A stretch of 64,000 bases of DNA. Origin: an uncultured Bacteroidales bacterium (lineage in GTDB: Bacteria > Bacteroidota > Bacteroidia > Bacteroidales > GCA-2748055). Both the position numbers and the translations under genes were made by a program. A model generated the notes under the pieces. It ran no database searches. It was not told the DNA's origin and saw only the letters and a list, made by a program, of their open reading frames with translations. How positions within the stretch are numbered: position 1 is the first letter of the stretch; every line of letters starts with the position of its first letter. Shown here in pieces: positions 33,124 to 37,571 of this stretch. The DNA is taken from positions 12,256 through 76,255 of the forward strand of contig CAWBWE010000031.1 of NCBI GenBank assembly GCA_963792395.1, in the 5' to 3' direction.

Positions 33124-33644
33124 ATGAAACGGATAATTACTAGGAGGGATGCTGATGATATTGACACTCTTCGCATTCGGACAGAAATCAGCTGTGGACA
33201 AGGTATTTGATAAGTACAGCGGAAAGGAAGGCTATACCACCGTCTACATTTCCAGCTTCATGTTCAACCTGTTGAACAGCCTGGAAACGGACGATCCGGA
33301 TTACAATGAGTTTAAGAAGGCCACCGCCGGAATCTAACTCCATCAAGATTCTGACCCAGGAAGGCGGCAATTCGAAGTCTTTTGGCGCGGAATTGCTGGA
33401 TATGTTGCCCAGGTCGAGTACCAGGAGATGATGGTGGTCAAAGACCAGGAGGAGGAGGTTCTGTTTCTTGCCCGTGAAGCAGGGTGGAAAGATCACTGAA
33501 TTTCTTCTGATCGTCAGTGGTGGGGGCGAGGATGCACTGATTGCTATTCAGGGTGATATTGATCTGGAGAGTATTTCCAGCATTGCTTCCGGACTGGATA
33601 TGCCCGGCTTGGAGAACCTGGAGGATATGGAGGAAATGCCCTAG
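33124..33644 (+). pseudogene. Second DUF4252 domain protein, several frameshifts
   Basis: Pieces in several frames: QKSAVDKVFDKYSGKEGYTTVYISSFMFNLL, YQEMMVVKDQEEEVLFL and ITEFLLIVSGGGEDALIAIQGDIDLESI. It is a paralogue of 31439..31942. Confidence 0.7.
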
Positions 33645-35021
33645 GGAGTATAGTAGAGCATCTTCTCCACCTTGTTATTCTTTAGCCAGTTTTTCAGGAT
33701 TTGCCTGATATCCCTGTTGTCCAGGGCAGGCTGAATGCACTCCAGCATCTCTTCAATGCCCAGGTAGGTTTCATTCACCGACAGGTAGCCATAGCCCATA
33801 TACATCCCTTTTTCAATCCGAACCAGACTTCGTTCATCAGGCTCCCTTCCCTGATCAATGATCAGTACATTTCCCCGATCGAGTTTCAGACTTTCCAGAA
33901 GTGATTCTGCCCTCTTATTATAAGCTGATACAGCTTCTCCCTGTATGCAGGCTCCGTTACACTGGCGGATGGAATGGTGAAAACAGGCTCCGTCGGTCTG
34001 ATAGAGTCCACTCAGCTTCTGGCAAAGCCAGTTCTTCCCCACCATTCTTGGTCAGGGCTTCCCGGGCCTCCTTTTTATTATTAAAACAGGTGACCGGATC
34101 ATCTGGAGTTTCGGATATCTTCTTAAGAGCGAAAGTGATATATCCATATTCATCCTTCCCTGGATAGAGGCCCCAGTAAGAAGTTGTCCGTTTCTGGGCC
34201 CGGTTGTAACGGGGTTTCTGCTCCTTGATTTCATTGGATTCCTTAAGTAGTGCAATTAGCTCACTTCCAGTTAGTTCATAGGATATGGAATGGATGCGTT
34301 GTTTCATCTCCATGGCCCTTTTGGTGCTGGTGTTTCCCAGGTGGGAGAGGACCCTGTGACGGATGTCTTTGCTTTTGCCGATGTAAAGCAATTGCTTTTG
34401 ATCGTCGAAAAAATAGTAGGTTCCGCATTCCTCAGGCAGCTTCCGTATATCTTCGATTGTCAGATGCTCATTCAGGTTCTTATATCTTCCTGACGGATCC
34501 CGGACCAGGGCTGCATCAAACTCCCCGTTCTGCTGATCGCGCAGCAGTTCAAATAATCTTACTGTTGCCAGGGCATCCCCGGCAGCCCGGTGCCTGTCCG
34601 TGATTTCAATTCCCAGGTCCTTGCAGAGTTTACCCAGGCTGTAAGATTTATGTCCGGGAATAATTTTTCTGCTTAGTTTGATGGTGCAGAGGGTGTTGCG
34701 ATCGAAATCGAACCCAAGATTTTTGAACTCACTCTTGATAAAGGAGTAGTCGAATTTCACATTGTGACCTACAATGGTGTGGTTCTCGGTTCGCTCTACA
34801 ATTTCTTTGGCCACCTCGTAGAATCTGGGAGCATTGGCCACCATTTCGTTGGTGATTCCGGTTAGTCCTGTGATGAAATAGGGGATGGATTTTTCAGGAT
34901 TAATCAAGGTACTCCATTCATCCACGACTTTCTTGCCATCGTGAAAGTAGATGGCAATTTCGGTTATTTTTTCTGTTTTCGGACTTCCCCCGGTGGTCTC
35001 AATATCAAGTATGGCATACAT
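33641..35021 (-). pseudogene. DnaQ-like 3'-5' exonuclease fused to GIY-YIG nuclease domain (Cho-like), one frameshift
   Basis: ORF 33957..35021 has Exo motifs (ILDIETTG, GHNVKFDYSF, HRAAGDA) and then GIY-YIG (GTYYFFDDQKQLLYIGKSKDIRHRV). The C-terminal 134 aa continue in ORF 33641..34045. The switch is near 34040. Confidence 0.85.
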
Positions 35022-35490
35022 CGCTCATTCTCCAGCTCCTGACCTGATCTATTCCTGAGGTGGCTCTCCTTTGGTGTTTCTTCTTTAGGGTCTCTTTTTT
35101 TGAGGGTTCCTTTTTAGCGGCAGGTTCCTTTTTAGCGGCAGGTTTTTTCGCGGCAGGTTTTTTAGCAGCGGGTTTTTTTACTTCAGCTTTTGGCTCTTCC
35201 TTCTCTGGTTTAGGCTCCTTAGCAACTGGTTTAGGCTCCTCAGCAACTACTGGTTTAGGCTCCTCAGCAACTGGCTTAGTTACTTCGGCAATTGGTTCAG
35301 CAACCGGTTCTTGTTTAGGTTTTGGTTCAGCTTTTGCTTTGGGAGTCGTTTTTACCTTATCAGTTTCTGAAACGGCCTTTTTGGTTGTGCTCACTACACT
35401 GAATGCACGCTTTCTTTTACGGGGTCTGAGTACTCCGTAACTACCACCGAAGAGTTTCCCCCTGCGGGTTTTTCTATCACCTTTTCCCAT
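35005..35490 (-). CDS. Ribosomal protein THX (bTHX) N-terminal module fused to a ~130-aa Lys/Ala/Pro/Glu-rich histone-H1-like tail
   Basis: The N-terminus MGKGDRKTRRGKLFGGSYGVLRPRKRK closely matches Thermus Thx ([25 protein letters not shown]). The remainder consists of repeats (EEPKPV x2-3, AAKKP x3). The 3' end overlaps the dnaQ-like start by 17 nt. Confidence 0.7.
   Translation of the reverse strand: MGKGDRKTRRGKLFGGSYGVLRPRKRKRAFSVVSTTKKAVSETDKVKTTPKAKAEPKPKQEPVAEPIAEVTKPVAEEPKPVVAEEPKPVAKEPKPEKEEPKAEVKKPAAKKPAAKKPAAKKEPAAKKEPSKKETLKKKHQRRATSGIDQVRSWRMSDVCHT
35105..35290. repeat. Tandem 15-21 nt coding repeats inside the THX-tail gene
   Basis: GGTTCCTTTTTAGCGGCA occurs twice, followed by three GGTTTTTT(C/A)GC(G/A)GC(A/G)-like 15-mers. 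Then come three GGTTTAGGCTCCT(T/C)AGCAACT units. They encode the AAKKP and EEPKPV repeats on the minus strand. Confidence 0.8.
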
Positions 35491-35551
35491 GATTTTTTAG
35501 TTAGAGTTGTAGCGGTGAATATAGTAAAAATTGAGCGGTCCGCCAACCCTT

Positions 35552-36026: not shown

Positions 36027-37571
36027 TTATAACGCTGGGGATGGAGAAGGGTTCAATTCTGTTTCTCTAAAGGTGATAGCCTCGAAAATATAGAGATCTG
36101 CATCTTTCCACTCCTCCCACCCAAGACCTGCCTTTTCCCTGGCACAATGGCTCAGTAACTCTTCAAGGGTCCAATTCTCCTTTGCGGCCTTACCTGGAAG
36201 ATAAAGCCCTGAATGGTCATTTTTCACCAGGTAGATCCCATGTTTGAGAATATCAATCTCATCCTGGCCCAGGATTTTCTTTATGTTGGAGAGAAGGGAG
36301 ATTTCGATGGTAATGTATTCCAGATCAGATGTTTCTACAGGAGCAAACCGATTATCTAGAGTGGCACTTGCAATGGTCATTTCCTGGACCATGGCACTGA
36401 GAGGAATCGGCGGCATAAGATGTTCGATACACCCCCTTAGCTTATTGCCCATATACAGGCTTACCAGAGCAGAGGCAGGCCGTAGCAGGCTGGAAGGGAG
36501 CCCGTCGGCGGGGATCTCCGGGATGCTTTCATCCCGTATATAGGAATCCAGGGTGGACCGTGAGATCCCCAGTAGCATCGCCTGCTCCTCCTCGTTAAGC
36601 TCAAGGTGGGAATCGACTTCGCTTTTCAGACTAGCCGCCAGGGCCCAATATCCAACCACTCGCTGACGGTCTCCAAGAGGCGAATCCCCTGAATTCCGAT
36701 AAAGCAATGATTTGAATTTCAAGTCCTTTGCCTGGTCGGCCATGTAAAGCAGGGTCATGATTGAGCTCCAGTCCCCGCTGGGTGTTGCAAGCCCGCTAAC
36801 CTCTTGCGTGCTAGCATCGCGTAAGACATTGTAAAATCGCTCAGGATTGCCACTTGAAATGGCATCCGCAGTGAGGTGATCGATGCGTTTGGCATCAGTA
36901 TAGGAAGGATAGCGAGAAAAATCGGCACTGATGATAAACAGGTTTTCTGGAGTGAACCAGGGCAGCAGCGCAGTGGCCAGATCCCTGGCCCCCGCCAGGG
37001 ACGAGGATCCCATCACAATAGGGATGATGGGGGGCGTACTCTCGAAATGGTACCGGATGAAGGGTAGCTGCACCTCAATGCCCTGTTCCCGTTCATGAGC
37101 CTCAGGCCGGTACAGGATAGATGAGTGTTCCTTGATCAGACTGGTTGCGAGCTGGTGGTTGACCTTAAGCTCACCTAGTGGAGTGGAGTAACTACCTGCC
37201 AAACAGACTGAGATCCCTTCGAATTGTTCCCTGTGGGAAGTAGTGATAATAAAAATATTTGCATAGGATGTGTTTTTCGGGATCGTCTGATATCCGGAAG
37301 CAGTTACCAATCCGGAATAATCTAGCCCTGCATGTGGGACAATGATGGATTGTACTTTTTCTTTTCCACTGGCAGATTCAACTTCAGGCGCAGCTTGTCT
37401 TGCATCGCTGAAAAGCCTTTCCAAAACGCTGTTTAGGGCTGCCTTTCCGGAAGGGTAGAAGGTGCCGGCAAAAGCTGGCGTTCTTGTTAATCCAGCTTCT
37501 GCCTCCTGAGCTGATAAAAAGCATGGGAAGAATAACAAAACGCTGTATAGGAGGATGAGAGGTCTAGGCAT
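36027..37571 (-). CDS. Memo-like (AmmeMemoRadiSam protein B) fused to AMMECR1 (protein A) domain, with signal peptide
   Basis: Intact 514-aa ORF. The Memo start is AFAGTFYPSG ... IVPHAGLDYSG. The C-terminal AMMECR1 motifs are LRGCIE, DNRFAP and GLYLPG. The N-terminus is MPRPLILLYSVLLFFPCFLSAQ. Confidence 0.8.
   Translation of the reverse strand: MPRPLILLYSVLLFFPCFLSAQEAEAGLTRTPAFAGTFYPSGKAALNSVLERLFSDARQAAPEVESASGKEKVQSIIVPHAGLDYSGLVTASGYQTIPKNTSYANIFIITTSHREQFEGISVCLAGSYSTPLGELKVNHQLATSLIKEHSSILYRPEAHEREQGIEVQLPFIRYHFESTPPIIPIVMGSSSLAGARDLATALLPWFTPENLFIISADFSRYPSYTDAKRIDHLTADAISSGNPERFYNVLRDASTQEVSGLATPSGDWSSIMTLLYMADQAKDLKFKSLLYRNSGDSPLGDRQRVVGYWALAASLKSEVDSHLELNEEEQAMLLGISRSTLDSYIRDESIPEIPADGLPSSLLRPASALVSLYMGNKLRGCIEHLMPPIPLSAMVQEMTIASATLDNRFAPVETSDLEYITIEISLLSNIKKILGQDEIDILKHGIYLVKNDHSGLYLPGKAAKENWTLEELLSHCAREKAGLGWEEWKDADLYIFEAITFRETELNPSPSPAL

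Follow-up and report, generated by a model that had tools for sequence, protein, structure and literature searches.

A single-copy bTHX gene with a long, repeat-built C-terminal tail typical of its lineage in an uncultured Bacteroidales bacterium

The ribosomal protein bTHX and its chloroplast form bTHXc lie buried in h41/h42 of the small subunit head, and a 20-aa C-terminal extension of the chloroplast protein contacts uS13c (PMC5737520). The extension at the C-terminus of bTHXc has also been described to contact uS7c, in a 2026 preprint which limits ubiquitous occurrence of bTHX to Thermales and Bacteroidetes, and calls the extension of the chloroplast protein 'absent from bacteria' (bioRxiv 10.64898/2026.07.03.736309). 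In another study, homologues of bThx were said to occur in Thermus only (10.1101/755876). Here, we focused our attention on a predicted bTHX gene of an uncultured Bacteroidales bacterium, which lies in the window, i.e., the whole stretch of 64,000 nt that was analyzed, and in which the ribosomal peptide is followed by a long tail. Positions are those of the window, unless another contig or locus is named.

The original prediction, made from the letters of the window, had read the N-terminal ~27 residues of this gene as a near-complete Thx, and profile searches uphold that reading. The core scored 46.8 bits with NCBIfam TIGR04560 (cut-off 26), covering profile positions 1-25 of 26, and 37.6 bits with Pfam PF17070 (cut-off 29.7), covering 27/27 profile positions. 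The best PDB match of the open reading frame (ORF) was Thermus thermophilus Thx, with residues 1-27 aligned to residues 1-27 from the initiator Met and 19/27 identical; plant bTHXm and bTHXc came next in the ranking, with weak matches (E 0.012-0.06) restricted to the core, and no Bacteroidota THX chain was found in this PDB search. When 16 same-genus proteins were aligned, 18 core columns were invariant, and the genome holds one THX match. With a score above both cut-offs, a full-length alignment to the Thermus protein and a single-copy orthologous locus, the gene is assigned as the single-copy orthologue of the 30S ribosomal protein bTHX. Other NCBIfam matches (GltJ, TonB, DnaX, SepH and others; E 0.003-0.9) lay far under their cut-offs and were rejected as low-complexity matches.

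The upstream neighbour of THX in the window is msrB (PF01641), and the gene order msrB - THX - dnaQ/GIY-YIG is kept across the genus, including two species with a THX of 50-51 aa. Upstream of msrB, a 514-aa fusion of a Memo-like (PF01875) and an AMMECR1 (PF01871) domain is encoded on the minus strand (36027-37571), and it adjoins msrB in several relatives. Approximately 30 nt 5' of the THX start codon, 17/17 same-genus loci share the block TTG..TTTTT(a/c)(c/t)TAT(a/c)TT(c/g)A; it coincides with a promoter-like site (Table 1), and we infer a promoter role for this conserved block. The consensus scan found no intrinsic-terminator-like site between THX and the dnaQ/GIY-YIG gene.

Table 1. Features of the bTHX gene and of its 5' spacer in the window.
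Feature	Position	Strand	Basis or remark
Promoter-like block TTGGCG-17 nt-TATATT, in the 61-nt msrB-THX spacer	35518..35546	(-)	Consensus scan
Whole THX ORF	35005..35490	(-)	161 aa as assembled
bTHX core module, residues 1-27 (MGKGD..RRGK..G.YG..RPRK)	35410..35490	(-)	Profile matches, Thermus identity, genus alignment
Conserved linker, residues 28-55; motif (R)xFSVVSTTKK and PKxK stretch	35326..35409	(-)	Genus alignment, charge blocks
Mildly acidic Pro/Glu/Val/Ala repeat block, residues 56-103; EEPKPV-type units; holds the 21/24-nt array	35182..35325	(-)	Tandem Repeats Finder, charge blocks
Basic KKPAA / KKEPA repeat block, residues 104-134; holds the 15/18-nt array	35089..35181	(-)	Tandem Repeats Finder, alignment, charge blocks
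Two apparent single-base deletions, between 35087/35086 and between 35068/35067	35067..35087	(-)	DNA alignment with two same-genus loci as reference (L003 and L007), three-frame translation; positions carry a few nt of alignment ambiguity
Out-of-frame read-through (..KKKHQRRATSGIDQVRSWRMSDVCHT)	35005..35086	(-)	End common to no relative
TAG, probable true stop	35049-35051	(-)	Column common to the window, L003 and L007; off the assembled frame

The tail is composed of 23% K, 14% A, 14% P and 13% E, and Tandem Repeats Finder detected two tandem arrays in its DNA, one with a period of 21/24 nt and approximately 3 copies (35205-35279), and one with a period of 15/18 nt and 3-4 copies (35105-35178), in agreement with the expectation of a long K/A/P/E repeat tail encoded by tandem DNA repeats, which here encode part of it. 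In the genus alignment, the linker reads xFSVVSTTKK, followed by EKPKA..PKPK.EP. The position of the acidic block is occupied in relatives by 5-10 copies of other units, and both unit and copy number vary by species (e.g., 9 x EEPKAEV in L004, ~10 x EEAPKA in L011 and 6 x EEVKPVA in L002). The basic block is the best-conserved part of the tail within the genus, with the consensus KPAAKKPAAKK, and the C-terminal end in the alignment is short and acidic (..KEEPPQE, ..PKEEA or ..EEKE). Net charge by block is +11 (residues 1-28), +3 (29-55), -3 (56-103) and about +9 (104-135); the whole tail carries approximately +9, half of it being acidic or neutral. Length differences in the tail are all frame-preserving across the genus, and the order of the blocks is kept. 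As had been suspected, tail length clearly varies from species to species as repeats expand or contract, in the genus orthologues as well as in the species representatives described below. Regarding repeat polymorphism within a species, no same-species sequences were found, as the best database protein was 83% identical over 40% of the query. In public metagenome-assembled genomes (MAGs), an N run, read as X, lies inside the THX tail of L006 / L027 and of L061, which suggests that the array of repeats is collapsed or gapped when short reads are assembled, and that tail lengths in databases may be underestimates.

AlphaFold2, run with the genus alignment, modelled a sole helix at residues 9-15, within the blocks where pLDDT was highest (69-77); beyond residue 15 no secondary structure was modelled, and pLDDT in the tail was 50-57, consistent with an intrinsically disordered tail. 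An unstructured model, low complexity and copy-number variation that keeps the frame are found together here, as in a disordered repeat extension of a ribosomal protein. Compared to L003, the closest relative, the tail has pN 0.137 and pS 0.324, and the core pN 0.016 and pS 0.051, while against more distant relatives the tail has pN 0.17-0.28 with pS saturating at 0.73-0.87, all of these values coming from protein-guided alignments of low-complexity repeats, which bias pN downward. Read with that bias, pN lower than pS in the tail indicates probable constraint at the protein level. An antisense ORF of 126 aa on the plus strand (GFFAAGFLAAG.., 35060..35440) carries no signal of THX or another family, and it was rejected as a real gene because relatives conserve the sense frame; this shadow ORF is open because the complement of AAR/GCN/CCN/GAR codons is stop-free.

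The end of the tail requires separate consideration. From approximately residue 135, the assembled protein (..KKKHQRRATSGIDQ..) is unlike any relative, with ~27 residues affected, and the window's other two frames contain ..KKRDPKEETPKE.. and ..KGEPPQE followed by a stop, which are pieces of the L003-type end, ..KKETGKEDTPKEEPPQE and a stop. Two 1-nt deletions relative to same-genus loci would make the assembled frame miss the conserved TAG (Table 1). If these two bases are restored, the gene has 444 nt and encodes about 147 aa, its end reads ..PKxEPPQE, compared to ..PKEEPPQE in the L003 protein, and 27 nt separate its stop from the dnaQ-like ATG (35019-35021), the corresponding spacer in L003 being 29 nt long. 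The caution expressed in the original prediction, that the frame and end of the tail were uncertain, including ~25 aa overlapping dnaQ, was thus justified: the last ~27 residues and the dnaQ overlap are probably an assembly frameshift artefact, rather than real mutations. The genome, a MAG from long reads, comprises 4.19 Mb in 31 contigs with a marker-gene completeness of 67.5%, most relatives being 91-100% complete. The gene downstream of THX (33641-35021, minus strand) encodes a DnaQ-type 3'-5' exonuclease (PF00929) fused to a GIY-YIG domain (PF01541), and is split into overlapping ORFs of 354 aa and 134 aa; a frameshift is placed near 34035 because close relatives align to residues 1-329 only. 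The broken frames of dnaQ/GIY-YIG and of the bS16 tail described below are further evidence of an assembly that, judged from its reading frames, is indel-prone.

Matches to the protein query were obtained in 19 of 24 same-genus genomes. All complete same-genus orthologues (17/17) are single open frames with the THX motif and a tail, and range from 50 to 177 aa, while a THX gene cut by a contig end exceeds 190 aa. Neither an early stop after the core nor a separate downstream gene for the tail was found in these 17 complete orthologues, so that the proposed THX-tail fusion stands, and comparison of the frames indicates that the in-frame joining of the THX module to the tail is real. The shortest genes are those of L018 and L019 (locus positions about 1447-1599 and 1501-1650), which lie in the msrB-THX-dnaQ locus and finish in a short Gly-rich stretch (..SSGGGNEDQ and ..SPGGGKEK, respectively). 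The long tail was either lost or never expanded in these two species, and since only a THX of 50-51 aa is present, it would be dispensable at least there.

To place these lengths in a broader context, THX was located in even samples of the order and of the phylum, with lengths in both taken as stop-to-stop open frames around the THX match. In the order sample of 251 genomes, 112 had THX, with a median open frame of 108 aa; 66/113 THX frames were at least 100 aa long and 23 at least 150 aa, with a maximum of 275 aa. In the phylum sample of 301 genomes, mostly from other orders, THX was found in 59, with a median of 48 aa, and only 3 THX frames were at least 100 aa long, one of them from this genome. 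Among species representatives, 66/78 complete THX genes were at least 100 aa long, the longest having 256 aa; these 78 genes were found with a tail-inclusive genus alignment, whose ranking favours tails. Tails from different families in the order have a common composition (K 14-40%, plus A, E, P, V or T) and no common sequence, the types being unalignable between families (e.g., KEVKEVKE, TTAKKTTAKK and EEPKAEV). The unusualness of the tail implied in the original prediction was therefore not confirmed: most THX proteins of the order have a long tail, and the gene belongs, as an unexceptional case, to a long-tailed bTHX variant typical of its lineage. In the protein database, many PF17070 proteins have 89-178 aa, several of which are titled 'ribosomal small subunit protein bTHX' by JGI. 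No description of a long tail on a bacterial THX was found in the literature searched full-text for bTHX; hence, the Bacteroidales THX tail is visible in databases, but apparently undescribed in papers.

A scan of the whole genome (4.19 Mb) returned only 3 K/A/P/E-rich ORFs, namely THX, the bS16 tail and an IF-2-like N-terminal region, and with just three qualifying ORFs a genome-wide habit of K/A/P/E tails was rejected. The bS16 gene, which is followed by rimM, lies outside the window on contig C9 (about 92580-94880, minus strand), and it has a long C-terminal extension ending in (EEPKAEEAPK)n and KKKEKK; its frame is broken in the assembly, as is the end of THX. The remaining one, also outside the window, is a K/A/P/E-rich open frame of 977 aa on contig C14 (plus strand, start at about 84.5 kb), which looks like IF-2 by its size and N-terminal low complexity.

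Based on these results, we consider it likely that the gene encodes a bTHX orthologue with a disordered, lineage-typical tail of ~120 residues, which grows and shrinks by repeat slippage, that its true length is about 147 aa, and that the assembled end is wrong. To judge from its Thermus and plant homologues (bTHX and bTHXc, respectively), the core (residues 1-27) would be buried among h41/h42 of the 16S rRNA, in the uppermost part of the 30S head. The tail, of ~120 residues as judged from its reading frame, would be translated as four blocks, i.e., linker, acidic repeats, basic repeats and a short acidic end, and slippage of 15-24-nt repeats would lengthen or shorten it between species while maintaining frame, composition and block order. 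It may leave the core pocket and project from the head into the solvent as a flexible polyampholyte, in which the basic KKPAA block could, to go by its composition, interact electrostatically and non-specifically with rRNA, mRNA or adjacent proteins of the head, and the acidic/proline block may serve as an extended spacer.

Whether such a tail has a function of its own can be argued in both directions. It may be a neutral passenger, in the sense that a solvent-facing C-terminus tolerates slippage-prone repeats and selection acts only against stops and harmful composition, without the tail having any function. Dispensability and mostly slippage-driven change are argued because of the nearly tail-less same-genus orthologues and the absence of sequence conservation between families: two nearly tail-less proteins stand within a single genus whose complete genes span 50-177 aa, with more than 190 aa in the contig-cut gene, tails of different families of the order cannot be aligned, and bTHX has been placed with those ribosomal proteins that are least essential (bioRxiv 10.1101/755876). 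However, the order-wide persistence of the tail, its conserved block order and pN below pS argue for some function; long tails are the majority across the entire order (median open frame 108 aa), the block order and the KPAAKK block are retained genus-wide, tail pN is lower than pS, and the occurrence of only three such ORFs in the genome speaks against genome-wide compositional drift. Weighing both sets of observations, we hold a purely neutral tail to be possible, though doubtful. A more ambitious proposal gives the order-wide tail a function in translation, as an appendage of the 30S head: a disordered arm with patterned charges, in which selection would maintain composition and block order, not sequence. 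This proposal seems to us rather unlikely. If it were true, mRNA/tRNA capture, modulation of the B1 bridges via uS13/uS7, or ribosome hibernation/clustering would be possible roles. Translation initiation in Bacteroidales proceeds largely without Shine-Dalgarno pairing.

A second role of THX off the ribosome, as a nucleoid-associated DNA-binding protein similar to H1, Hc1 or AlgP, was also weighed, as the original prediction had compared the tail with these proteins. The KKPAA/AAKKP repeats are indeed similar to the tails with which H1, Hc and AlgP bind DNA, and compositional matches exist, both of them weak: PF07382 (HC2) scored 16.7 bits on the ORF, and the N-terminal tails of histone H2B appeared in the PDB search with E 0.1-0.5. 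The former is far under its cut-off of 40, and Pfam revealed neither a linker-histone globular H1/H5 domain nor an HU domain in the ORF. A specific kinship was accordingly not borne out, and the H1/Hc likeness is, as far as these comparisons reach, one of composition and not of homology. Moreover, half of the tail is acidic or neutral, with a net charge of only ~+9 overall, the THX core is a dedicated rRNA-buried peptide, and the bS16 of the same genome has a similar E/P/K/A tail, which points to a ribosomal context; altogether, a nucleoid function is very unlikely. Finally, the long ORF could in principle be an artefact in which indels joined a short THX gene to downstream sequence, given that the assembly is prone to indels and the last ~27 residues are probably such an artefact. 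Nevertheless, the THX-plus-tail frame is present in 17/17 complete same-genus orthologues from independent assemblies, and in dozens of other species sequenced with short or long reads, which makes this explanation extremely improbable. The reading we favour remains that of a bTHX orthologue carrying a lineage-typical disordered tail.

For the window, the value of these results is mainly one of annotation: the gene is bTHX, its true end is probably the TAG at 35049-35051, and the overlap with dnaQ is probably artefactual. At a broader level, the literature searched treats bTHX as a peptide of ~27 aa, whereas the majority form in this order is 4-10 times that size and has a charged tail predicted to be disordered, and our sampling contradicts 'absent from bacteria' for a C-terminal extension of THX. 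This points to a modest, testable gap in ribosome biology, which is a property of the whole lineage and not of this locus.

Among the described systems, Thermus thermophilus Thx (PF17070, TIGR04560; PDB 1FJG chain V) matches residues 1-27 of the protein described here over its full length, and both presumably bind at the same place in the 30S head (h41/h42); however, the Thermus protein is the 26-27-aa core alone, while the ORF reported here adds ~120 putatively disordered C-terminal residues. Plant bTHXc (PSRP4) and bTHXm are alike in combining a THX core with extra sequence, and the bTHXc extension of ~20 aa, which reaches uS13c/uS7c, is the only structurally seen precedent for a C-terminal extension of THX, but it is short and takes an ordered form on the ribosome, and its sequence is unrelated to that of the tail found here. 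The tails of histone H1, chlamydial Hc1/Hc2 and Pseudomonas AlgP share a KKPAA-type repeat composition with the basic block, whereas the THX tail sits on a ribosomal peptide, is half acidic or neutral and has no detectable homology to them. The bS16 tail of this same genome is likewise a repeat-built, seemingly disordered appendage on a 30S protein, though on a different protein and at a different ribosomal site, and any common function would be conjectural. The closest likeness is with the long-tailed bTHX of other uncultured Bacteroidales (113-165 aa, annotated by pipeline), which have the same architecture and composition and, within the genus, the same locus; only the repeat unit and copy number differ, the copy in the window being in addition frame-shifted at its end.
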